Translations under genes and position numbers: made by a program | The notes under the pieces: generated by a model | Databases searched by the model: none | The model's input: the letters and a program-made list of their open reading frames with translations, nothing else | What the model was told of the DNA's origin: nothing | DNA from: Candidatus Babeliales bacterium | GTDB lineage: Bacteria; Babelota; Babeliae; Babelales; JANWKD01 | Assembly (NCBI GenBank): GCA_963701665.1 | Contig: OY969622.1 | Coordinates: 768,001-832,000 of the forward strand | DNA: 64,000 bases | Direction of reading: 5' to 3' | Part shown: positions 4,028-61,158 of the stretch, piece after piece | Layout: each line of letters opens with the position of its first letter | Position numbering within the stretch: position 1 is the stretch's first letter

Positions 4028-5149
4028 TTAGGAAGATCGTTGCCACATGCCCATGAAATTTTGCGTAACTTTTCCAGCAAGTTGCAAATCAAATAATTGC
4101 GTTTGCAATTCTAAAAGAGAAAGGCCCGTTTTTTGTTCAAGTTCATCGATAGAGACAGGATATTTACATAAGTGAAGCAGTTGAGGGTTTTTATCAGACA
4201 CGTGCATTTGTGCACTCGTTTCATCTTCTTGAACGCGTGTATCATCATCCGCTCGTTCCGCACTCTGATATCCGCACTCGCGTAAAATATCGGTTGCACT
4301 CGTTGCGACATGAGCACCTTGGCGCATCAGTTCATGACAACCCGCGCTCAACGGATCATCAAAAAGTCCAGGAACGGCAAAAACTTCTTTGCCTTGTTCA
4401 AGCGCATGCGATGCCGTAATTAAGGAGCCGCTTTTTGATGCAGCTTGCACAACAACGCACGCTTTGCTTAATCCCGCAATGATACGGTTTCGTGCAGGAA
4501 AATTAGCCGGTAGGGGATACATGTTCATAGGATAGGAAGTAACGAGCGTACCACCATGTTCAATAATAGAAGAAAATAAGCGTACGTTTTGCACCGGATA
4601 AAGATTGTTAAAACCCGCGCCTAATACAACAACAGTTTTGCCGCGTGCATTAAGAGCAGCTTGATGCGCAAAAGTATCAATGCCGCGCGCACCACCACTC
4701 ACGATGGTAATGCCGCACTCGACTAATGGGGGAATAAATGTATCAACACACGTTTTTCCATATGAAGTTGCCTTGCGTGCGCCCACAAAAGCAATACTTT
4801 CAGCGTGATCTGATAAAGGAGTACCTTTTACATACAACACCGCAGGCGGAACATGAATAGAACGGAGCATCGCTGGGTAGGCATCATCTACAAACATAAC
4901 TATGCTCACTCGTTCTTTCTGGATTAATGTTAATTCTTGATCAAGCTTTGCACGATCAAGCAATCCTTCCACAATGAGATGTGCACTTTTTTCAGCGATA
5001 CCACACCGATGCATAAGATCTGTAACTGAAAAATTGTACACTTCAGCAAGAGTATCGTGAGGAATTTTTTCCAGAATGCGATTGATCAGTGCAGGACCAA
5101 CATTATCGATTAATGAGAGGTGCAGTATAAAATCGTGAATGTTCATCAT
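4028..5149 (-). CDS. dprA: DNA-processing protein DprA
   Basis: VGARKAT.YG, IVSGGARGID, FPARNRIIAGLS, SGSLITA, VFAVPG motifs; C-terminal winged helix. Confidence 0.96.
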   Translation of the reverse strand: MMNIHDFILHLSLIDNVGPALINRILEKIPHDTLAEVYNFSVTDLMHRCGIAEKSAHLIVEGLLDRAKLDQELTLIQKERVSIVMFVDDAYPAMLRSIHVPPAVLYVKGTPLSDHAESIAFVGARKATSYGKTCVDTFIPPLVECGITIVSGGARGIDTFAHQAALNARGKTVVVLGAGFNNLYPVQNVRLFSSIIEHGGTLVTSYPMNMYPLPANFPARNRIIAGLSKACVVVQAASKSGSLITASHALEQGKEVFAVPGLFDDPLSAGCHELMRQGAHVATSATDILRECGYQSAERADDDTRVQEDETSAQMHVSDKNPQLLHLCKYPVSIDELEQKTGLSLLELQTQLFDLQLAGKVTQNFMGMWQRSS

Positions 5150-7756
5150 TAGATAAAGTCTAAGCTATCATCCTCTTTGCTAGAATCCGAAGATGGTACA
5201 TCATTCTGTTCCTCTTGCCCAATGAAAATAAAATGCGAATCTTCAAACCCAGAAGCTTTGATCGGCGTATTCTTAGGCGCTTTTGGTGCGTTTGCATTTT
5301 CTTCATGATCAACTGTTGGTTCTTCAAAAGAAACAACTGCCGATAATCTTTGATCTTCATTTAAGCGAATGAGACGCACACCTTGTGCTTGACGGCCCAT
5401 AGTACGAATTTCTGTTGGTGAAAGACGAATAATTTTTCCGGTGGTATCAATAAGCAACACATTTGAACTATCGGTGACAACGGTCAAGCCAATGACATTA
5501 CCATTACGCTCGGTCGTTGGGATAGTGCGTACGCCATAGCCACCGCGATGCGCCACGCGGAAATCATCAGCTTTCACGCGTTTACCATACCCTCGTTCTG
5601 TTGCAAATAAGATATCATTATCATCGTGAATAACTTCCATACCCACCACAAAATCTTTTGATTTCAAGCGAATACCCATCACGCCAGAGGCTTGGCGGCC
5701 CATTTGCCGCACTTCAGTTTCTTTGAAGCGAATTCCTTGGCCTTTTGCTGTTGCAATAACAATTGAATCATTGCCTGAACTGAGTGCACAGAAGACTAAA
5801 TGATCATTGTCACGCAAATTAATTGCACGAATACCTGAGCTTCTAATTTTTGCAAATGCCATTGCATCCGTACGCTTAATAATACCTTCTCGCGTTAACA
5901 ATACTAACGATTTGCCTTCCAAATCACGTGCAGGCAATAATTTTACCACTGTTTCATCCGGCGCTAATGGCAATAAATTAACTATAGCGCGGCCTTTTGC
6001 AATACGAGATCCTTCAGGAACTTCAAACACATTTAAACTATACACGCGGCCTAAATTGGTGAAGAACAGAAGTTCATCATGGGTTTTTGCAACAAAAATA
6101 TCTTGAATTAAATCACCTGATTCATCGAGTGCCGTCATACCCATCTTCCCGCTTCCACCACGATGTTGTACGCCATACGTTCCCAGCGGCACGCGTTTGA
6201 TATAGCCTTTGCTTGTGAGGGTAACGACCACTTCTTCATCAGGAATTAAATCTGCTTCAGTCAGAATATCAATTGGCCCTTCAATTTTGGTGCGACGAGC
6301 ATCAGCATATTCACTTTTAATGGCGATTAATTCTGCTTTTACTTCAGTACGCAAAATAGTTCTATCGGCAAGAATTGATTTATAATATTGAATCGTTTTT
6401 TTCAACTCTTCCATTTCAGTGTAAATTTTTTCTTGCTCCATCCCCGTCAAACGTTGTAAACGCAATTCAAGAATCGCTTTACCTTGTTCAAGTGTTAGTA
6501 AGAAGCGTTTATTAAGGTGAGCAATGGCTTCTTCGGCAGAACGCGACTGTTTGATCAACGCAATAACTTCATCAATATTATTCAAAGCAATGATAAAACC
6601 AGCAAGAATATGCTCGCGCATTTCTGCTTTTTTAAGATCATACACCGTACGCTTATAAATAATCTCATGACGATGTACTAAGAATTCATGCAATAATTGA
6701 CGTAGGGTAAAAACAGATGGCTTATTATCGAGCAACGCTAGCATCAAAATCGATATCGTTGATTGCAAGGAGGTGTATTTAAATAACTGATTGAGCACCA
6801 CGTGATGGAATTTCACCACGTTTGAGTTCAATAACTAAACGCATACCCTTTTTATCAGATTCATCACGAATATTTGAAATACCTTCAATAATCTTATTCT
6901 TTACTAAATCAGCAATTTTAATTGCTAACTCAGCTTTATTAACTTGGAATGGTAATTCAGTGACAATGAGTGCGGAGCCTTTTTTTGTTTCTTCAGTTTC
7001 AACCACACCGCGCAAAATAAGATTCCCTCGTCCCGTTTTATACGCGCGCACAATGCCCGCTCGTCCGCAAATAATGCCACCCGTTGGAAAATCTGGCGCG
7101 GGAATGAGTTGAAAGAGAGCCTCGTCATCGATTGTTTCATTATCAAGATATGCAAGACACGCATCGATAATTTCGCCTAAATTGTGCGGTGGCACGGCGG
7201 TTGCCATACCAACAGCAATACCAGCAGTACCGTTCACTAATAAATTGGGTAATCTGCTTGGCAAAATAACTGGCTCAACGGTTGAATCATCAAAGTTAGG
7301 CACAAAATCAACCGTCTCTTTATCAAGATCAGCTAAAATTTCGCTGGCAATTTTTGCCATACGCACTTCGGTATAACGCATTGCTGCTGCATTATCGCCA
7401 TCGACCGAACCCCAGTTACCTTGACCATCCAGCAATGGATATCGTTTTGAAAAATTTTGGACAAGCCCAACCATACTATTGTAGACAGCCTGATCGCCAT
7501 GCGGATGGTATTTACCAAGAACATCACCCACAACACGCACCGATTTGTGATAGGGCTTATTGTGATAGAAACCAAGTTGTGCCATGGTATAAAGAATACG
7601 CCGATGCACGGGTTTCAACCCGTCACGCACATCAGGTATTGCACGACTGACTATAACCGACATGGCATAATCAAGAAACGACGTCTTTAATTCTTCTTCA
7701 ATAAGAACCGGCTTAATGCCTAACTTTGAAACTTTTTCTTGAGTATCACTTGCCAT
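5149..7756 (-). CDS. gyrA: DNA gyrase subunit A, split by one extra base near 6805
   Basis: ORF 6779..7756 ([24 protein letters not shown]) and ORF 5149..6831 (GyrA-box QHRGGSG, beta-pinwheel repeats) join into 868 aa if one base at 6805/6806 is removed. Confidence 0.95.
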
Positions 7757-26010: not shown

Positions 26011-26784
26011 ATGATGGTTTTTAAAAAAAGTTTAGCTGCGTTATCTCTCATGATGTTTTTTCAGGCCTATGCAGGACTCACACAAGAAGCACGAGAAAAA
26101 GGATTTGTATATTTGAAAGACATCGATCCAACAATTCGTGTTTCATTGCGGTATTTCTCTTCAGAAAATTTTGTTGGCAAGCCGGTTGATAGTTATAACA
26201 GTGACGTATTAATTGTACACAAAAAAACAGCAAAAAAATTAAGAAGAGTACAACGAGATGTCCAAAAAGATGGGTATTCATTGGTTATTTATGATGCGTA
26301 TCGCCCTCAAGATGCCGTTAATCATTTCATGCGTTGGAGTGAAGATCCATCAGACCAAACAAAAAAAGAAGAATATTATCCTCGTGTTGATAAAGCAAAA
26401 GTTTTTGAACTTGGCTATGTTGCAAAAAAGTCAGGACATAGCAGAGGAAGCACGGTTGATTTAACGCTAATTAAAAATGATGCACAATTACATCCGATAG
26501 AAAAGAAAGAACGTACCCTATTAGATGGTTTTAAAATTTTCTTACTAGATGATGGAACCGTTGATATGGGTTCATCATTTGATTTATTTGATAAGGCCTC
26601 CCATTATGAAGGTAATGATGATCTTATTGAGCCGCAGTATAAGCAACGAAGAACTTATTTAAAAGAAAAAATGGAAGCTCATGAGTTCAATAACTATTCA
26701 GAAGAATGGTGGCACTATACCCATAAGAATGAACCGTATATACGCAGTGAAGAATCGAGCTATTTCAATTTCCCGGTAGAGTAA
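26011..26784 (+). CDS. D-Ala-D-Ala dipeptidase (M15, VanX/DdpX family) with signal peptide
   Basis: YDAYRPQ, SGHSRGSTVD (SxHxxGxxxD), EEWWH all intact. Confidence 0.93.
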   Translation: MMVFKKSLAALSLMMFFQAYAGLTQEAREKGFVYLKDIDPTIRVSLRYFSSENFVGKPVDSYNSDVLIVHKKTAKKLRRVQRDVQKDGYSLVIYDAYRPQDAVNHFMRWSEDPSDQTKKEEYYPRVDKAKVFELGYVAKKSGHSRGSTVDLTLIKNDAQLHPIEKKERTLLDGFKIFLLDDGTVDMGSSFDLFDKASHYEGNDDLIEPQYKQRRTYLKEKMEAHEFNNYSEEWWHYTHKNEPYIRSEESSYFNFPVE

Positions 26785-26807
26785 CACTTTTAATATTTTC
26801 TATAATA

Positions 26808-26840
26808 AAAAAAAGCCTGGCAAACAACCAGGCTTTTTTT
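26808..26840 (+). terminator. rho-independent terminator
   Basis: AAAAAAAGCCTGG-caaacaa-CCAGGCTTTTTTT. Confidence 0.85.
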
Positions 26841-26983
26841 ATTTGTGAGACACTTTCCCCGTCTAACTTATCAAATATGCATGTCAAAGAGAGATTATTC
26901 AGTTTTTTGATAATCAAAATTGCTACTTTATAATAGCTTATGCTAGAGTATGCACAATATTGTCATAACGTTTTAGCGAAAGG

Positions 26984-27802
26984 ATGCTTTCAATGGTATT
27001 GACGGAAAAAAAAGCATTTTTATTCTTACTCATACTATTAAGCTGTAGTATTGATCATACTCTGCAAGCAAAAAAATTAATTGCTTCAAACCTTGGAAAT
27101 GAAGCGCATTCAAAGGGCTTTGTATATTTGTGTAATATAAAAGATACAGATGACATCAAACCCTCTTTAAGGCTTGTTTCCTTACAAAATTTTGCCGGAA
27201 TGCGTATGAAAGGATTCTCAAGAAAAGATCAGGTAGTTCTTACTAAAAAAACAGCAAAAAAACTTAAAAAAGTACAACGAGATGTCCAAGAAGATGACTA
27301 TTCATTAGTTATTTATAATGCGTATCATCCTCAAGATACCGATGATCAACTCATGAATTGGGCTGCAGATCTTTCAGATCAAAAAAACAAAGCAGATTAC
27401 TATCCTAATGTGGATAAATCAGAATTAATTAACCTTGGTTATATAACTCCTACATCAGCCAATAGCGTAGGACGTACCGTTGAGGTAACCTTAATTGAAA
27501 AAAATAAAAAATTACAAACAATAGTTAAGAGAAAGCGAATATTACAAGATGGAAGTAGCATTGTGCTTCTCGATGATGGTACGGTTGATATGGGCTCATC
27601 GTATGGATTATTTGATAAGGCATCTCACACTGATGACAACGGGCTTCTTGCACCAAAATTCAAAAAACGAAGAATGTATTTGCGCCGGATGATGGCTGCA
27701 CACGGATTCGTTAACACTGATCCAACAAAATGGTGGCTTTTCACCCTTGTAGGTAAGCCCAATACAGATGACAATCAGCACTTCAACTTTCATGTTCAAT
27801 AA
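26984..27802 (+). CDS. VanX/DdpX paralog with substituted catalytic residues (pseudo-enzyme)
   Basis: Collinear with the upstream copy, but motifs read YNAYHPQ, SANSVGRTVE, TKWWL. Confidence 0.85.
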   Translation: MLSMVLTEKKAFLFLLILLSCSIDHTLQAKKLIASNLGNEAHSKGFVYLCNIKDTDDIKPSLRLVSLQNFAGMRMKGFSRKDQVVLTKKTAKKLKKVQRDVQEDDYSLVIYNAYHPQDTDDQLMNWAADLSDQKNKADYYPNVDKSELINLGYITPTSANSVGRTVEVTLIEKNKKLQTIVKRKRILQDGSSIVLLDDGTVDMGSSYGLFDKASHTDDNGLLAPKFKKRRMYLRRMMAAHGFVNTDPTKWWLFTLVGKPNTDDNQHFNFHVQ

Positions 27803-32954: not shown

Positions 32955-33019
32955 AATTAATTCCTTTAAGGATGTATTAAAATTCTGGATCCCCACGGCG
33001 CTTCGCGCCTCGGGATGAC
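32951..33019. repeat. palindromic miniature element, half copy
   Basis: TTCCTTTAAGGA spacer plus CTGGATCCCCACGG..CCTCGGGATGAC between convergent genes. Confidence 0.75.
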
Positions 33020-33028
33020 AACTTAGGT

Positions 33029-33586
33029 TTATTTTATGCCTAAATAATATTTAATCGTGTCCCATAAAGAATATTGCATCATTGCATCTTGTTTTACTTC
33101 TTCTTTTGCTGGCAATAATTCCCATTCTTCTAGGCCTTTTTCAGTTTCATCGAGTGGGCTCTCAATGCACGCAACCTCTTTGTGTATAGTGCATAGATTG
33201 TCATACGCGGGCATCATGGCGCCATGATGCAATAAAAGATCAATGATATTAGATCCCTTGTTATGTTTTTTAGCGAATTCTAATGGACTCATCGAACTGA
33301 CATCAACGAGATTTGGATTCGCACCATGCTTTAATAACTCACGTATAACCATGGCCTCATGACCATTAGACTTATACAACGCTATCATCAAGGCTGTTTT
33401 ACCCTCATATGTTGCATTTGGATTCGCTCCTTCTTCAAGAAGCTTTTTTAAGGTAATGATATCGTTTCGCACAACTGCATCAAAAAGATCATAAGAAAGC
33501 GTTTCATCAAAGGTTTGATCAGAAACTGCACGCAATAAACATACGAAAAGACATAATATTGACGCATATTTTATCATAGGATTCAT
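33029..33586 (-). CDS. exported ankyrin-repeat protein
   Basis: Signal peptide; LLEEGANPN..GKTALMIA, LLKHGANPN; tail EEWELLP...SLWDTIKYYLG. Confidence 0.9.
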   Translation of the reverse strand: MNPMIKYASILCLFVCLLRAVSDQTFDETLSYDLFDAVVRNDIITLKKLLEEGANPNATYEGKTALMIALYKSNGHEAMVIRELLKHGANPNLVDVSSMSPLEFAKKHNKGSNIIDLLLHHGAMMPAYDNLCTIHKEVACIESPLDETEKGLEEWELLPAKEEVKQDAMMQYSLWDTIKYYLGIK

Positions 33587-33609
33587 AGTTGATAATAGCT
33601 TTCGTTTAT

Positions 33610-34179
33610 TTAATACCCTAAATAATACTTAACAACATCCCATAGCGAACGTTGCTTTGATGCTTCTTCTTCCGCTATTTCTTCTTTCGTTGGTAAGAAT
33701 TCCCATTCTTTTAGCTCTTGCTCGGCTTGCTCATAAGGACATTCTTGAGGTGCAACTGCGCCGGGGGTATAACCAGCACTCGCGCGTGGCGTAATTTGAG
33801 CGCCATATTGCAACAAAAGATTAATAACTTTAGGATCTTTTTGATATTGAGTCGCATATTCTAATGGACTCATCAAGCTTGCATCAACAAGATTAGGATT
33901 AGCACCGTTTTTGAGTAATTCATCAACAATAACAACCTCATTGCCATTTGATGTATGGAGGGCCACCATCAATGGTGTTTTACCTTCATATTTTGCATTA
34001 AGATTAGCTCCTTGATTAATGAGCTTTTTCAACGTAACGCTATCATTTCGTTCGACGGCATTTAAAAGATCATATGAAAGCAGGTCATGAGTAACTTGTC
34101 GCGAAAAAGGGCGTTCTACTGCATGTAAAGCAACCATAAAAACGCTTAATACTAATACATATTTCATATTAAACTTCAT
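33610..34179 (-). CDS. exported ankyrin-repeat protein (paralog of 33029..33586)
   Basis: GKTPLMVA, LLKNGANPN; tail KEWEFLP...SLWDVVKYYLGY. Confidence 0.9.
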   Translation of the reverse strand: MKFNMKYVLVLSVFMVALHAVERPFSRQVTHDLLSYDLLNAVERNDSVTLKKLINQGANLNAKYEGKTPLMVALHTSNGNEVVIVDELLKNGANPNLVDASLMSPLEYATQYQKDPKVINLLLQYGAQITPRASAGYTPGAVAPQECPYEQAEQELKEWEFLPTKEEIAEEEASKQRSLWDVVKYYLGY

Positions 34180-34723
34180 ATTTACCTCCTACTTCAATAA
34201 GTGTCCAATCTTCTTCTTCAGGATTGATCTCAATAAATTCCTTTTGCAATCTTGCTAATTCGCGTTCTTTTCTCTCTTTTTCTCGTTGCACACGATTTGT
34301 TGCAAGATAATCATCCATAGTTTTGCCATAGGCGTCTTTCACCTCGGAATCAGCACCTGCGGAAAGTAATAAATTCATAGGATCTGTATAGCCAAAATCA
34401 GCAGCAAAGGTTAATGCCGTCATGCCATTGCCGGCGATAAAATCTAATCCATTATTTTTTCGGGCCGTTTCCAATAAATATTCTAAAATACTCGCATCAA
34501 CGCGATCAGTAAAATTTTCAATTTGATGCATAATTGCAGTTTTTCCATCCCTTTGAGCATTAGGATTAGCCCCTAAAAGTAATAATGTTTCTACCATAGT
34601 AGGTCGATTAGAACCTCTTTGAAGAATTACATCAATTAATTGCTGATCCCGTTCAGAATTTGCATACATGGCTCCTGTTAAAAAAGCCAGTATTATCACT
34701 ACTATCTTTTTCATTACCCTCAC
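34169..34723 (-). CDS. exported ankyrin-repeat protein
   Basis: LLLLGANPN..GKTAIM, GMTALTFAA, LLSAGAD; tail EEEDWTLI. Confidence 0.88.
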   Translation of the reverse strand: MRVMKKIVVIILAFLTGAMYANSERDQQLIDVILQRGSNRPTMVETLLLLGANPNAQRDGKTAIMHQIENFTDRVDASILEYLLETARKNNGLDFIAGNGMTALTFAADFGYTDPMNLLLSAGADSEVKDAYGKTMDDYLATNRVQREKERKERELARLQKEFIEINPEEEDWTLIEVGGKYEV

Positions 34724-39465: not shown

Positions 39466-39729
39466 ATGGTCGCAAAAAGAAAAAAAGCTGCATCAAAGAA
39501 AAAAAGAACAACAAAAAGAGCTACCAAACGTCGTGTAACAAAAAAACGTGCTGGCGCTAAGAGAAAAACAGCAAAAAGAGCTGGTGCAAAACGACGTACA
39601 GCTAAAAGAGCTGGTTCAAAACGCCGCGCATCAAAAAAACGCGCTGGTTCAAAAAGAAAAGTAGCTAAAAAAGCTAAAAGAAGACACAGCCATTTAAAAG
39701 TTGCGCTTAAAAACTTAATGGGTGCGTAA
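39466..39729 (+). CDS. histone H1-like Lys/Arg/Ala-rich basic protein
   Basis: Repeats of (A/K)KRAG(A/S)KR(K/R)x; AGGAG RBS; own terminator. Confidence 0.75.
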   Translation: MVAKRKKAASKKKRTTKRATKRRVTKKRAGAKRKTAKRAGAKRRTAKRAGSKRRASKKRAGSKRKVAKKAKRRHSHLKVALKNLMGA

Positions 39730-54564: not shown

Positions 54565-55872
54565 TTATGATACTGCGCACCATGTTGATGATTTTTCAGG
54601 AACAAGATAAGGCTGCAAAATAGCTGCTAATATGGGCTTATTCTGCATAAGATTCTTAACAGCTTCTTTAACAAGCGAAGGTGCTTTATTGAGTTGAACT
54701 TTTTCATCAATAGTTATCATCTCGAGCAACCATCGCAAGGTTAACGCATCTTCGATTGATAATTTTTGTATATCTGGTTGTAAATCTGGATTTGTTATAT
54801 GCCATTTTTCAACGATTCTTTGATAGGCCATAGTCTTATCACAGATCAACTGATTTTGACTGTCGTACCCTACTGCCTTCTGGGTAGTATACTTTTTAAT
54901 ATTTTCAAGTGAAGCAGCATCCCATATTTGTATTAACCATTTTTTTGTATCTAGTAATGATGATGTTACTAAGTTTGCACCATTTGGTGAGAATGAAACA
55001 GAATGTGCTGGCCCTTGTGAAGTAGCCAGCAATTGACACTTTTGTGTCGCTAAATTCCAAAGGCGTACAATTTTGTCTTCCGTTGCGACTGCTAATATCT
55101 TGTTAGAAGGGGAAAAACGTAATGCAGTAACACATTTTCTGCTTGCGAATTCCGCAATCATACTATCTTCTTGTATACTCCATACAACCACTTTAGAACA
55201 ATTATTCATAGCAAGCGCTATAAGTGATTTATCATCTGAGAAAACGAAGTGTGATGGCGAATTATTTTTTATTTCATCAATAAGTAATTTAGGTAATGTA
55301 TGACTAGCATTAAAACCGTATTTTTTTGCCATTGTTGAAGCAACAAACAAAGACATTTCTGCTGGCATCGTGTCTGAGGGTGGCGCAGTAAATGTTTGCG
55401 TAATTTTAAGCATTTTTTCAAGATGCGTAGTATTAAATTCTTTTATGAGAACATTACTCAACAAATCTGAAGCTATGTTCATAAGAGTACAACAGTCTAA
55501 ATAGTTAGCTGTATTTAATAAAGGTATCAGTGCGTTTAACGATAGTTTTTTTGCTGCGAGGAAAGCTTTGCATTTTTTAAGTATTTCTTCTTTAGATAAA
55601 GTTTTTGATTGTTGAACTAAAAAGTCACTTAATTCTTTAATAATAGACATCTCGCGTGAAGTAACAACATCTGATACTACCAAAGGATTTTGAGTTGTGT
55701 CATCACAGTCTGCGATCATATGAGTAAGTAGTTTTGATTCTTGTATGGTTTCATCGGTAAAGGTAAATTTTCCACCGTCTCGCGTTTCCACCACTATTTC
55801 CATAGCAGAAAGTGAGAATGCGGTATTTATGAGAAACAACATTAAATTTTTTATTACTTTTTTACTAAGCAT
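54565..55872 (-). CDS. putative effector: signal peptide, Skp1/elongin-C-like domain, WD40 repeats, C-terminal CaaX
   Basis: IVVETRDGGKF..SKLLTHMIAD..LLNTANYLD..L; VTALRFSPSNKILAVATEDKIVRLWN; ends WCAVS. Confidence 0.8.
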   Translation of the reverse strand: MLSKKVIKNLMLFLINTAFSLSAMEIVVETRDGGKFTFTDETIQESKLLTHMIADCDDTTQNPLVVSDVVTSREMSIIKELSDFLVQQSKTLSKEEILKKCKAFLAAKKLSLNALIPLLNTANYLDCCTLMNIASDLLSNVLIKEFNTTHLEKMLKITQTFTAPPSDTMPAEMSLFVASTMAKKYGFNASHTLPKLLIDEIKNNSPSHFVFSDDKSLIALAMNNCSKVVVWSIQEDSMIAEFASRKCVTALRFSPSNKILAVATEDKIVRLWNLATQKCQLLATSQGPAHSVSFSPNGANLVTSSLLDTKKWLIQIWDAASLENIKKYTTQKAVGYDSQNQLICDKTMAYQRIVEKWHITNPDLQPDIQKLSIEDALTLRWLLEMITIDEKVQLNKAPSLVKEAVKNLMQNKPILAAILQPYLVPEKSSTWCAVS

Positions 55873-56469: not shown

Positions 56470-59400
56470 ATGAAGCGATCCCCCGTTTTCTACATTATTA
56501 TATTGGGCGCTCTATTTTGCACTTCAGCGATTTCGGCTTCCACAGATATAATGCACCATCCAGATTTCAGTACTGATATTATAGTTGATAAAGACTGTAA
56601 ACAGTTTATCCAAGATATTATCAAAGAAGCACTCATTGATAATACGTATGAACAGCTTTCCGAGGGATTATTACATTGTTACGAAAGAATTCAATGCGAT
56701 CCTGAATGTTGCACATTACCCCTTAATGATCTTATAGATGCCTTCCCTGAATTAGTTGCAAAATTAAAAGAGAAGCTTAAAGCTCCCCGCCCTCCTCAGG
56801 GCAATCATGCTATTGTTGGCAGCAATACCATTGATTTTGGATCTCTTATAGCATTACTAATACGATTAGAATTTCTGATCAATCAACTAGCGCAACAACA
56901 AAGCTCTTGCTGTAGCCAGATACTCTCTGACTTTCAGCAAACATGGTCTATCCTTGATCATCTCTCATTTACTACTACGGTGGATCTTTCTTCCGTGTTT
57001 ACGGCGCTCAATGCATGCTGCTCAAATATAACCTCGGAATTCCAACAAACATGGACCATCCTTGATCATCTCTCACTTACTATTACGGCGGATCTTTCTT
57101 CTGTGTTTACGGCGCTCAATGCATGCTGCTCAAACATAAATTCTGAATTCCAACAAACATGGACTATTTTAGCCGGTCTTTCACTAACTGCTACCGTTGA
57201 TCTTTCTTCTGTGTTTACGGGGCTCAACGCATGCTGCTCAAACATAAATTCTGAATTCCAGCAAACATGGACTATGTTAGCCGCCGGGTTTAATGGTACC
57301 TTCAGTACACTTAATAGTTTTAATACCACTGTTACCACAGATTTTTCATCAACCTGGACAATTATCAATACCGGATTCAATGGAACTTTCTCTGCGCTCA
57401 ATGCATGCTGCTCAAACATAAATTCTGAATTCCAACAAACATGGACTATTTTAGCTGCTGATTTCAATGGCACATTCTCTGCAATTAATGCGATCAACAC
57501 TAATGCAAATAACACGTTCACCGTAATCGCAGATCTAAAAACTACGGTGACCAATGACTTTGCTGCAACATGGACAATTATTAATGCTGGATTCAATGGA
57601 ACCTTCTCTGCGCTCAATGCTTGTTGCACGAATATAAATTCTGAGTTTCAACAAACTTGGACGATCTTAGCTGCTGATTTCAATGGCACATTCTCCGCAA
57701 TCAATGCGATCAACACTAATGCAAATAACACGTTCACCGTAATCGCAGATCTAACAACTACGGTGACCAATGACTTTGCCGCAACATGGACAATTATTAA
57801 TGCCGGATTCAACGGCACCTTCTCTGCACTCAATGCTTGCTGCACGAATATAAATTCCGAATTTCAACAAACATGGACAATTTTAGCCGCTGATTTCAAT
57901 GGCACATTCTCCGCAATCAATGCGATCAACACTAATGCAAATAACACATTCACCGTAATAGCAGATCTAACAACTACGGTGACCAATGACTTTGCTGCAA
58001 CATGGACAATTATTAATGCTGGATTCAATGGAACCTTCTCTGCACTTAATGCTTGCTGCAACAATATAAATTCCGAATTTCAACAAACATGGACTATCTT
58101 AGCTGCTGATTTCAATGGCACATTCTCTGCAATTAATGCGATCAACACTAATGCAAATAACACGTTCACCGTAATCGCAGATCTAAAAAACACTGTTACC
58201 AATGACTTTGCTGCAACATGGACAATTATTAATGCCGGATTTAATGGAACCTTTTCAGCGCTCAATGCTTGTTGCACGAATATAAATTCTGAGTTTCAAC
58301 AAACATGGACTATCTTAGCTGCTGATTTCAATGGCACATTCTCCGCAATCAATGCAATAAGCATAGATGCAAATGGCACCTTCTCTGCACTGGCAGATTT
58401 AAAAAATACAATCACCAATGACTTTGCTGCAACGTGGACAATTCTTAATGCTGGATTCAATGGAACTTTCTCTGCGCTCAATGCTTGCTGCACAACTATA
58501 AATTCTGAGTTTCAACAAACCTGGACTATCTTAGCTGCTGATTTCAATGGCACATTCTCCGCAATTAATGCGATCAACACCAATGCAAATAACACATTCA
58601 CCGTAATCGCAGATCTAACAACTACGGTGACCAATGACTTTGCTGCAACGTGGACAATTATTAATGCTGGATTCAACGGCACCTTCTCTGCACTCGATGC
58701 TTGTTGCAACAACATAAATTCTGAGTTTCAACAAACGTGGACTATCTTAGCTGCTGATTTCAATGGCACATTCTCTGCAATTAATGCGATCAACACTAAT
58801 GCAAATAACACGTTCACCGTAATCGCAGATCTAACAACTACGGTGACCAATGACTTTGCTGCAACGTGGACAATTATTAATGCTGGATTCAATGGCACGT
58901 TCTCTGCACTCAATGCCTGTTGCACAACTATAAATTCCGAATTTCAACAAACATGGACTATCTTAGCTGCTGATTTCAATGGCACATTCTCTGCAATTAA
59001 TGCGATCAACACTAATGCAAATAATACGTTCACCGTAATCGCAGATCTAAAAACTACGGTGACCAATGACTTTGCTGCAACATGGACAATTATTAATGCT
59101 GGATTTAATGGAACCTTCTCTGCACTCAATGCTTGTTGCAACAACATAAATTCTGAGTTTCAACAAACATGGACCATCTTAGCTGCTGATTTCAATGGCA
59201 CATTCAGTATGCTTTCAAATCTTTCTACTGCAGTGACCAATGACTTTGCTGCGACCTGGACCATTTTAGCTGCTGGCTTTAATGGAACCTTCAGCGCAAT
59301 TAATGCCATCACGCTTGATGCAAATGGCACCTTTAGCGCACTATTAGATTTGAAAAATACTATCACTAATGATTTTGCTGCAACGTGGACAATTTTAAAC

Positions 59401-61158
59401 GCTGAGTTCAATGGAACGTTCTCTGCACTCAATGCTTGTTGCACTAACATCAATTCTGAATTCCAACAAACATGGACTATCTTAGCTGCCGGATTTAATG
59501 GCACATTCAGCACACTCGCTACTATTCCTGGCGATTTTAACGCTACATGGACTATTTTGGCCTCTGGCTTTAATGGAACTTTCACAGCGCTCAATGCTTG
59601 TTGCACTAACATCAATTCCGAATTCCAACAAACTTGGACTATCTTAGGTGCTGGTTTCAATGGGACTTTCAGCACACTCGCTACTATTCTTGGCGATTTT
59701 AACGCTACGTGGACTATTTTAGCCTCTGGCTTTAACGGCACCTTCTCGGCACTCAACGCCTGTTGCACTAACATTACTTCTGAGTTCCAACAAACTTGGA
59801 CTATTTTAAATGTCTTAACCGAAAACCTTTCAAATCCGGTTATGATTACGCAAGCAAATTTTGGAACAGCAGGTGGAACGCCCTATATCATTTCAACGTC
59901 TGGCGTATATAGGTTGGGTAGCAATGTTGTTTTCACACCATCTATAACAACTACTGCTATACTTATTACGACAACCAACGTTGTCCTTGATCTACAACTC
60001 TTCACATTAAGCCAAGGAAATACCACCACGGGCGTGAATGCTATCGTCGTTAGTTCTGGTATGACCGATGTGTATATTCAAAATGGCACAATAAAAAACT
60101 TCACACGTTCTGCAATATCATTCCAAGGGAACAATCGAAGAGTAGGAATTGATCAAACCACCACCGTATCATGTGCGGTGCGCGGCATCGAGTTAATCTC
60201 ATCGAGCGCACCGAGCCAAAATGTTATCATTCAAAATTGCAATGTATACAATTGCTCAACAGCAGCAACCGCCGATAATGCATTAATTTTACAATCATGT
60301 AATAAAGGAATAATAAAGGATTGCACATTGAATGGTAATGGTGTTAATTCAAATACCATAAATGTACTTAATTTTAATAGCTGCATTGAATTTATTGTGT
60401 CAGATATCAGTATGTATGAAAATACTGCCTCTTCGCTCAACTGCATATCATTAGATAGCACGTCTTCACTTAATTACTTTGATAACTGTATCATGATGAA
60501 TAATCAATCCATTAATACTCTCAATGGGTTTACTATTTCTAGCAACGCCAATATTTTTAACAATTGCATCGTCAATGGAAATATAAGTTATTCGACAAAT
60601 ACCAGTCCTCTAAACGGATTCAATATAGCGGGATCTTTCAATACAATGACTAACTGCGCAGTATCCTTTAATCAAACACCAGTGCCGACAAGTTCGACGA
60701 CAGTTGCCCCTATTAATGCTTTTGACTTAAGCGGATCTGAAAACATCCTATCTAATTGTCAATCAATATTCAACCAGGCCAACAGTCGTTTTGAGGGATG
60801 TTTTATCTCTACTACGAGCAATATCATCGATCACTTTATAGCCGCTAATAATATAGGTTTCTTAGGTGTCTGTGCTGGCATTTTCATTAACAGCGCCTCA
60901 GCTGTTAACAATATAGTAAGGAATTGTTTATTCGTAAATAATCTTGGTTATACTACTGTGAGTGGACAACCCACCAATGGTTTCGGACTAGATAATGCGG
61001 CTACGGGATATTTAATCTATGACAATGTTGCGTATATAAATCAAACTACACAAATTTTTGGTGTCGCTGCAGGATCTTTAACAACGCCAACAGCACCAGC
61101 ATCACAAAACTTGGCAGCTGTTACAGGTGCCTGGACTAATTTAGCACTCGCTGCTTAA
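56470..61158 (+). CDS. giant repetitive exported fibre-like protein with C-terminal right-handed beta-helix
   Basis: Signal peptide; 72-aa (216-bp) repeats with FQQTWT/FNGTF/ACC; C-terminus ISTSGVYRL..NVVLDL..IQNGTI..IQNC. Confidence 0.85.
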   Translation: MKRSPVFYIIILGALFCTSAISASTDIMHHPDFSTDIIVDKDCKQFIQDIIKEALIDNTYEQLSEGLLHCYERIQCDPECCTLPLNDLIDAFPELVAKLKEKLKAPRPPQGNHAIVGSNTIDFGSLIALLIRLEFLINQLAQQQSSCCSQILSDFQQTWSILDHLSFTTTVDLSSVFTALNACCSNITSEFQQTWTILDHLSLTITADLSSVFTALNACCSNINSEFQQTWTILAGLSLTATVDLSSVFTGLNACCSNINSEFQQTWTMLAAGFNGTFSTLNSFNTTVTTDFSSTWTIINTGFNGTFSALNACCSNINSEFQQTWTILAADFNGTFSAINAINTNANNTFTVIADLKTTVTNDFAATWTIINAGFNGTFSALNACCTNINSEFQQTWTILAADFNGTFSAINAINTNANNTFTVIADLTTTVTNDFAATWTIINAGFNGTFSALNACCTNINSEFQQTWTILAADFNGTFSAINAINTNANNTFTVIADLTTTVTNDFAATWTIINAGFNGTFSALNACCNNINSEFQQTWTILAADFNGTFSAINAINTNANNTFTVIADLKNTVTNDFAATWTIINAGFNGTFSALNACCTNINSEFQQTWTILAADFNGTFSAINAISIDANGTFSALADLKNTITNDFAATWTILNAGFNGTFSALNACCTTINSEFQQTWTILAADFNGTFSAINAINTNANNTFTVIADLTTTVTNDFAATWTIINAGFNGTFSALDACCNNINSEFQQTWTILAADFNGTFSAINAINTNANNTFTVIADLTTTVTNDFAATWTIINAGFNGTFSALNACCTTINSEFQQTWTILAADFNGTFSAINAINTNANNTFTVIADLKTTVTNDFAATWTIINAGFNGTFSALNACCNNINSEFQQTWTILAADFNGTFSMLSNLSTAVTNDFAATWTILAAGFNGTFSAINAITLDANGTFSALLDLKNTITNDFAATWTILNAEFNGTFSALNACCTNINSEFQQTWTILAAGFNGTFSTLATIPGDFNATWTILASGFNGTFTALNACCTNINSEFQQTWTILGAGFNGTFSTLATILGDFNATWTILASGFNGTFSALNACCTNITSEFQQTWTILNVLTENLSNPVMITQANFGTAGGTPYIISTSGVYRLGSNVVFTPSITTTAILITTTNVVLDLQLFTLSQGNTTTGVNAIVVSSGMTDVYIQNGTIKNFTRSAISFQGNNRRVGIDQTTTVSCAVRGIELISSSAPSQNVIIQNCNVYNCSTAATADNALILQSCNKGIIKDCTLNGNGVNSNTINVLNFNSCIEFIVSDISMYENTASSLNCISLDSTSSLNYFDNCIMMNNQSINTLNGFTISSNANIFNNCIVNGNISYSTNTSPLNGFNIAGSFNTMTNCAVSFNQTPVPTSSTTVAPINAFDLSGSENILSNCQSIFNQANSRFEGCFISTTSNIIDHFIAANNIGFLGVCAGIFINSASAVNNIVRNCLFVNNLGYTTVSGQPTNGFGLDNAATGYLIYDNVAYINQTTQIFGVAAGSLTTPTAPASQNLAAVTGAWTNLALAA
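57432..59160 (+). repeat. about eight near-identical 216-bp intragenic tandem repeats
   Basis: Antisense shadow ORFs recur at 57648, 57864, 58080 ... 59160 (period 216). Confidence 0.9.

Follow-up and report, generated by a model that had tools for sequence, protein, structure and literature searches.

Babelota genomes carry up to ~100 exported ankyrin proteins, and the available parts of the reports on Babela and Chromulinavorax give no specific host target for theirs (PMC4378268, PMC6561590). What such proteins may hold on to inside a host is the question raised by three tandem ankyrin genes in a Candidatus Babeliales genome (GenBank assembly GCA_963701665.1, contig OY969622.1, positions 768,001 to 832,000; this whole 64,000-nt stretch is referred to as the window). 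Their products, P0001, P0002 and P0003, each end in a charged, acidic tail of ~50 residues. An original prediction, made from the letters of the window, had seen in these tails the ATG8-binding motif known as the LC3-interacting region or ATG8-interacting motif (LIR/AIM), and had proposed that the proteins mimic selective-autophagy receptors. Here, we find that the tail motifs are conserved in a family of 19 proteins, and on balance we lean towards the view that these are exported, non-enzymatic ankyrin adaptors that use their tails to dock on ATG8 of the host.

Architecture of the three proteins

The ankyrin locus sits in a 1.34 Mb single-contig genome, and the three tandem ankyrin proteins of the original prediction are indeed there, as three minus-strand open reading frames (ORFs) with ~three ankyrin repeats each and a Pfam Ank_2 match above the cut-off in every one. 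Gene 1 encodes P0003 (181 aa, 34169–34714, minus strand, as are all features of the three proteins given below), which combines a predicted signal peptide (approximately residues 1–18, 34661–34714, from the sequence and a hydropathy heuristic), an ankyrin region (residues 36–127, 34334–34609; Ank_2 E value 3.7e-9, predicted local distance difference test (pLDDT) >90 in the structure model), a charged helix and two tandem motifs, A and B. Gene 2, which overlaps it by 11 nt, encodes P0002 (189 aa, 33610–34179), with a predicted signal peptide, an ankyrin region (residues 38–131, 33787–34068; E value 7.3e-12), motif A and a C-terminal amphipathic segment. The product of gene 3, P0001 (185 aa, 33029–33586), is a paralogue of P0002 (51% identical) with the same layout and an ankyrin region at residues 34–123 (33218–33487; E value 3.7e-11). 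P0003 aligns to the other two over the ankyrin region alone (29–33% identity). All three have a basic-hydrophobic N terminus that scores as a signal peptide; signal peptides here and throughout are predictions of a home-made hydropathy heuristic. A catalytic domain was not found in the three window proteins.

Family and tail motifs

The three proteins belong to a family of 19 in two subfamilies, 13 F-type (including P0003) and 6 W-type (including P0001 and P0002). Its members are the 3 of the window, 3 in genome G001 and 2 in metagenome locus L090, both at the same genomic site as in the window, 3 in G003 at a different site, and 9 database matches, one of which is an L090 gene; the nine are P0004 and eight proteins from a tail-inclusive profile search. 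Pairwise identity among 18 aligned members is 19–92%, with the low end of 19–25% found across subfamilies. The tree splits the F-type and W-type subfamilies (support 97/95), with P0003 apart from P0001 and P0002, and a single origin of the two was not established by it. P0010, P0012 and P0358 were found as gene neighbours, not via the motif, and the tail motif is present in each.

The four peptides quoted in the original prediction, EEWELL, KEWEFL, KEFIEI and EEEDWTLI, are all present outside the ankyrin repeats. In the alignment of 18 sequences, EEWELL of P0001 (residues 153–158, W155; 33113–33130), KEWEFL of P0002 (residues 157–162, W159; 33676–33711 together with the PTKEEI that follows) and KEFIEI of P0003 (residues 158–163, F160; 34226–34243) share one position, which we call motif A. 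EEEDWTLI (residues 166–173, W170; 34196–34219) had been taken for the equivalent of EEWELL and KEWEFL and as evidence that the motif persists in the most divergent paralogue. The motif does persist there, as KEFIEI, a peptide mentioned only in brackets; EEEDWTLI does not align at that position, being a second motif (motif B) in a protein of a separate subfamily. It is also the most canonical LIR/AIM-like site of the locus.

Motif A, E-[F/W]-x-x-[I/L/V], is present in all 19 family tails. Glu occupies −1 in 19/19, I/L/V occupies +3 in 18/19 (P0010 has Gly) and Glu occupies +7 in 15/19, including all three window proteins; position 0 is F in 14 and W in 5, a count of aromatics that is partly by construction because the motif anchors were placed by hand from the alignment (A3). 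Motif B, an acidic run followed by W-x-x-[I/L/V], is found in 14 proteins (all 13 F-type members and P0014), with I/L/V at +3 in 14/14, Glu at −2 in 13/14, Glu at −3 in 11/14 and Pro or Gly directly before the Trp (−1) in 5/14. The two motifs are 10–43 residues apart, Pro and Gly are absent from +1 and +2 of both motifs in every row, and P0012 and P0014 hold additional copies.

LIR/AIMs are described as an aromatic-x-x-aliphatic core with acidic residues at −1 or −2 and, at +7, a further acidic residue as the partner of Arg67/70 of ATG8 (PMC7615515, PMC8727931), and validated examples include WEEI of NEDD4 and the C-terminal WEIV of PexRD54 (PMC9907853). All four window motifs have the core [W/F/Y]-x-x-[L/I/V], and the predicted acidic flanks are there, with Glu at +7 in the three A motifs. 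Judged by sequence, the tails have the features of LIR/AIMs; KEWEFL with its downstream PTKEEI, which supplies Glu at +7, resembles the 'LIR core + C-helix' arrangement (PMC8727931). The two high-fidelity AIM (hfAIM) patterns quoted in a review (PMC8634866) match 13/19 members versus 28/1255 proteins of the genome within the last 50 residues, P0001 and P0003 being among the 13.

Beyond the motifs, each of the six W-type proteins finishes with a segment that is net basic and rich in Trp, Tyr and Leu, a candidate membrane-binding helix with hydrophobic moments of 0.40–0.70, a measure that alone is no proof of such a helix because some acidic F-type ends score equally high. In P0002 the segment (residues 178–189, 33613–33648) is a net basic, predicted amphipathic helix (moment 0.64) and candidate membrane anchor; in P0001 (residues 173–185, 33032–33070) it is a candidate amphipathic helix with a moment of 0.41 and a net charge of +1. 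We rejected the terminal W-x-x-I/V of P0001 and P0002 as a second LIR, given that it has no acidic flanks and is net basic, and that P0358 keeps the amphipathic pattern.

Conservation versus chance

Shuffled tails of P0001–P0003 yield a [DE][WFY]xx[LIV] match 21–26% of the time, and, with P0001 and P0002 51% identical, the three proteins by themselves make a weak case. Conservation in homologues had been proposed as a check, and it was found. All 18 aligned tails match the pattern, with 27 matches versus 4.8 expected from shuffles, a figure to be read as conservation and not as a p-value or as independent trials because the sequences are kin. Because the earlier search profile included the tails, we also re-ranked 88 proteins using an ankyrin-only profile: the 19 members rank top, and the tail motif occurs in 19/19 of them versus 4/69 of the others. 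Among the genome's ankyrin-like proteins, the strict motif lies in the last 40 residues of 3/35, exactly the window three. Once homologues are counted, the motif conservation exceeds chance.

That the motif serves these bacteria as an all-purpose signal for export or chaperones, or goes back to a chance product of acidic composition in a single ancestor, is very improbable. Chance matches in shuffled single family tails (15–42%) and the descent of all members from one or two ancestral genes speak for this reading, but the motif columns are fixed while adjacent tail columns and lengths vary at 20–50% overall identity, and the C termini of the genome's 456 predicted exported proteins are not enriched in the motif (19 observed versus 19.0 shuffled), which argues against an export signal. 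A genome-wide LIR strategy was rejected for the same lack of C-terminal enrichment. The apparent surplus of [DE][DE]W among exported proteins (36 versus 14.8) was set aside as well, as it comes mostly from N-terminal or mid-protein sites, several of them in paralogues.

Distribution of the family and of similar tails

The two best loci among GTDB contigs carry the label Candidatus Babeliales. A metagenome scan gave 34 loci, of which one (L090) is a real new family locus; 8 of the other 33 were translated and encode generic ankyrins. In an all-protein hidden Markov model search, every match among those listed was at least 1,080 aa long with a very long ankyrin array, and PDB, searched by sequence as well as by fold, yielded generic ankyrins and designed ankyrin repeat proteins, confirming together with the Ank_2 matches the ankyrin fold. 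A protein atlas search with the tail gave no score >0.81, and a promoter scan did no better than shuffles (8 versus 7.8).

When the pattern was run on four genomes of the same family, two matches turned up 114 nt apart within one gene of G004 (L129:1492–2100, which is G004:C1:266662–267270, minus strand). The product of this gene combines a predicted signal peptide with a J domain (Pfam DnaJ, E value 1.4e-16) and an acidic tail with the motifs EEWEII, EEWEVA and EEWEFI, and has no ankyrin repeats; the protein, if real, would connect host Hsp70 to ATG8. Across the order, the pattern scan returned 53 matches in 48/261 genomes, 42 of them within ORFs of at least 100 aa and 10 at most 30 residues from the C terminus, the latter being P0014, three new acidic-tail cases (L157, L158 and L213) and six that look like chance. 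The three new cases were chosen by eye and are leads only. In other families of the order, L158 holds an unrelated ankyrin protein with a predicted signal peptide and a tail end of EEEWEEV (L158:1494–2033, minus strand), and L213 a 116-aa protein outside any Pfam family that starts with a predicted signal peptide and ends in DEEWELV (L213:1485–1832, minus strand). With its variable spacing and its counterpart on a J-domain protein, the tail looks portable, as a linear motif would be. Outside the window, the same genome encodes a 127-aa predicted exported protein whose end, DEDEFWLI, holds an acidic F-x-x-I motif, a LIR-like candidate (G000:C1:76384–76767).

Weighing ATG8 docking against other readings

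Several observations weigh against ATG8 as the partner, and the predicted helix through motif A is the main evidence against this motif being a LIR. In the P0003 model, a helix at residues 133–163 (pLDDT ~80) terminates on motif A; in the P0002 model, which has a low-confidence tail, a helix at residues 148–161 terminates in motif A and a second one follows it at residues 165–187. Upstream of motif A, hydrophobic residues occur at −7 in 13/19 and at −3 in 12/19 members, and because those at −7 and −3/−4 line up with positions 0 and +3, motif A could be a helical binding face. The original prediction had named burial in a folded helix as contrary evidence: this applies in part to motif A, which lies beyond the ankyrin core at a predicted helix end, and does not apply to motif B, which is modelled as coil (pLDDT 48–60).

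The helix also raises the reading that the tails are structural or bind a bacterial partner, with motif A as the last turn of a charged helix packed against a paralogue or a bacterial partner, motif B folded into the ankyrin groove and a role in the periplasm or envelope. We consider this unlikely. The helix through motif A and its hydrophobic stripe (−7, −3/−4, 0, +3) favour it, but the ankyrin cores are confident in the models of both P0002 and P0003 and neither shows confident packing of the tail on its core. Similarly, both subfamilies share a tight, co-transcribed layout in four loci, yet the variable spacing of motifs A and B, the extra copies in P0012 and P0014 and the similar tail on a J-domain protein without ankyrin repeats argue against this reading. 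In its favour, a signal peptide by itself takes a protein no further than the periplasm, and the self-protection ankyrin of Bdellovibrio is reportedly a precedent for an ankyrin in the periplasm or envelope.

A second set of points concerns the specificity of the motif. P0001 and P0002 carry motif A without motif B, and P0002 is matched by neither hfAIM pattern. The tails are 22–42% Asp/Glu, so that the acidic flanks and Glu at +7 are partly compositional, and the LIR core, a common pattern, is in many cases a false match (PMC9907853). Members share ancestry, and the F-type profile matched 3/261 genomes, all of one family; the J-domain protein with its tail rests on one genome of the 261, and in the order-wide scan the motif also ends a pilin-like protein and other unrelated ones.

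The FIP200-interacting region (FIR) consensus, [DEST][DEST][FWYILV]xx[ILV], is nearly that of the LIR, with a requirement for acidity at −1 (PMC7615515), where motif A has Glu in 19/19. The tails might dock on another host protein, either the Claw of FIP200/Atg11, SUMO through a SUMO-interacting motif (SIM) or another acidic-aromatic reader, and would still belong to exported adaptors, with ATG8 not the main partner. We regard this as rather unlikely. EEWELL and EDWTLI conform to the FIR consensus, and KEWEFL and KEFIEI, with Lys at −2, do not. On the SUMO side, the WTII, WEII and WVIL cores that follow an acidic run resemble SIMs (PMC12751080), the window cores WELL, FIEI and WTLI have three SIM-like hydrophobics, and Babela has genes for Ulp1-like desumoylase homologues (PMC4378268). 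However, Glu is the usual residue at +1 of motif A and a frequent one at +2, which leaves two hydrophobics, as in its commonest core FEEI, instead of the typical three. Position 0 is always aromatic (F or W in 33/33 hand-anchored motifs), whereas an FIR may have I/L/V at this site and the cores of SIMs consist mostly of V/L/I; the Pro or Gly found at −1 of some B motifs is a further point against this reading. Docking on FIP200 and on ATG8 are not exclusive, because dual LIR/FIR motifs exist.

Docking on ATG8 would also require that the proteins reach it. The genome contains two genes for secretins, matches to T2SSF and four matches to ATP/ADP translocases, a set that one would expect in an intracellular parasite, and we infer that it belongs to a Babelota parasite of protists. 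No ATG8 above the cut-off was found in 201 genomes of the order; any ATG8 partner would therefore be the host's, and a bacterial ATG8 was rejected. ATG8-like ORFs, mostly intact, are present at 54 viral-contig loci (L028–L081), many of them in giant-virus bins. Receptors of selective autophagy bind cargo through a further domain, work in the cytosol of the host and are broken down together with their cargo. Components of type II secretion are core across the phylum (PMC4776705), fluorescence in situ hybridization places Babelota inside the protist cytoplasm (PMC12172432), and Chromulinavorax grows in the cytoplasm (PMC6561590). Acanthamoeba ATG8 is functional (PMC10673212). To be added to the points against is that Babela grows in a vacuole (PMC4378268), through whose membrane no route is known.

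A possible mechanism

Docking on host ATG8 would build on the observed architecture and motif conservation in proteins for which no catalytic domain was found. The proteins would be exported by Sec and then leave the cell by type II secretion or in vesicles. In the host, the aromatic residue and the aliphatic residue at +3 would occupy the two hydrophobic pockets of ATG8, the acidic flanks would contact its basic residues and Glu at +7 would pair with its conserved Arg (R67/R70). F-type proteins could gain avidity on ATG8-coated membranes through two motifs, and W-type proteins could combine one motif with a membrane-binding amphipathic end. The outcome would be an ankyrin-bound partner held at ATG8-coated membranes around the parasite, in competition with host autophagy receptors, and the effect could be either cargo delivery or a block of xenophagy.

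The earlier interpretation is thus supported in part: the motifs recur in homologues, sit clear of the ankyrin fold and fit the LIR/AIM pattern, and a selective-autophagy receptor mimic is one option beside a decoy or a membrane anchor. A wider proposal, which we hold to be doubtful, is that Babeliales evolved a portable, multivalent ATG8-docking tail on interchangeable heads (two ankyrin subfamilies, a J domain and possibly more), yielding enzyme-free receptor mimics that redirect ATG8 membranes and chosen cargo, Hsp70 clients included, to or from the parasite. If the tails do bind ATG8, they would offer a molecular handle on the dealings of this parasite phylum with protist autophagy.

Other features of the window and its relatives

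The three ankyrin ORFs are flanked by genes that we take, from their translations, to be trxB on one side and rpmH/rnpA on the other. Just beyond the stop of P0001 lies a 45-nt GC-rich repeat (32975–33020) with 40 blastn matches genome-wide, which resembles a repetitive extragenic palindromic (REP) intergenic element. In G001, a gene between trxB and the ankyrin cluster (L016:7783–8778) is presumably an integrase-like insertion sequence gene, its family being recognised from the translation. Long repeat proteins with predicted signal peptides stand near ankyrin clusters in L016 and L017 too; in the window, a 1562-aa repeat protein (56470–61158) has per-stretch Pfam matches that are all below threshold.

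Another predicted exported protein (54565–55872, minus strand) has a Skp1_POZ match just under the cut-off followed by WD40 repeats, and is possibly a ubiquitin-ligase adaptor mimic. At 26011–27802, two D-Ala-D-Ala dipeptidase (Peptidase_M15) genes lie in tandem, and the N termini of their products are hydrophobic. An 87-aa Lys/Arg/Ala-rich ORF without a Pfam match (39466–39729) looks to us like a histone-H1-like DNA-condensing protein. The gyrA gene (5149–7756, minus strand) is split into two ORFs (6779–7756 and 5149–6744), with a frame change near 6780–6800 and the Pfam topoisomerase IV domain divided between them, which is likely due to an assembly indel.

Comparison with known systems

The closest setting is that of other Babelota ankyrins, which also combine repeats with a signal peptide, occur in arrays and are presumed to be host-directed; signal peptides are given for 79/126 in Babela massiliensis (PMC4378268) and for 78% of 98 in Chromulinavorax (PMC6561590). 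The present family differs in its conserved tail, which is absent from 32 other ankyrin-like proteins of the same genome. Our literature search, which most subscription journals lay outside, returned no report linking Babelota ankyrins to ATG8.

The likeness extends to eukaryotic parasites. PexRD54 of Phytophthora is said to be an oomycete RXLR effector whose head is built of WY repeats, a repeat domain without enzyme activity. It is secreted and binds plant ATG8, with a C-terminal AIM, WEIV (PMC9907853). This AIM is close to the WEII and WTII ends of the family, to which PexRD54 is not homologous. The 'LIR core + C-helix' ligands FAM134B, FYCO1, giant ankyrins B/G, SEC62 and Ede1 share the acidic +7 residue (PMC8727931), and W-type tails similarly continue into a predicted helix. 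These ligands have a partner hydrophobic at +8 or +11 (PMC8727931), whereas after motif A the family has Leu at +8 in 2/19, Val at +11 in 2/19 and L/I/V at +9 in 7/19. The giant-ankyrin LIR likewise lies outside the repeats (PMC8727931); the shared name 'ankyrin' is coincidental and implies no homology. In F-type members, a second motif takes the place of the C-helix. If docking on ATG8 is true, the two layouts (tandem motif, and motif with amphipathic end) together with the J-domain fusion would amount to modular evolution of an autophagy-docking tag.

Among bacteria, the two examples below are not homologous to the family. Legionella RavZ is aimed at host ATG8 and has tandem LIRs and a membrane-targeting part, but it is an Ulp-like 'cut' protease delivered via Dot/Icm (PMC8634866), whereas the family has proteins of ~180 aa with ankyrins, predicted signal peptides and no catalytic domain found. 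Legionella Lem26, an effector of a protist parasite, has a C-terminal W-x-x-L AIM joined to membrane sensing, but is an ADP-ribosyltransferase activated by ATG8 (PMC12977470), again in contrast to the ankyrin family. If the tails bind as we propose, a non-enzymatic, adaptor-type ATG8 ligand would join these two bacterial examples, both of which are enzymes.

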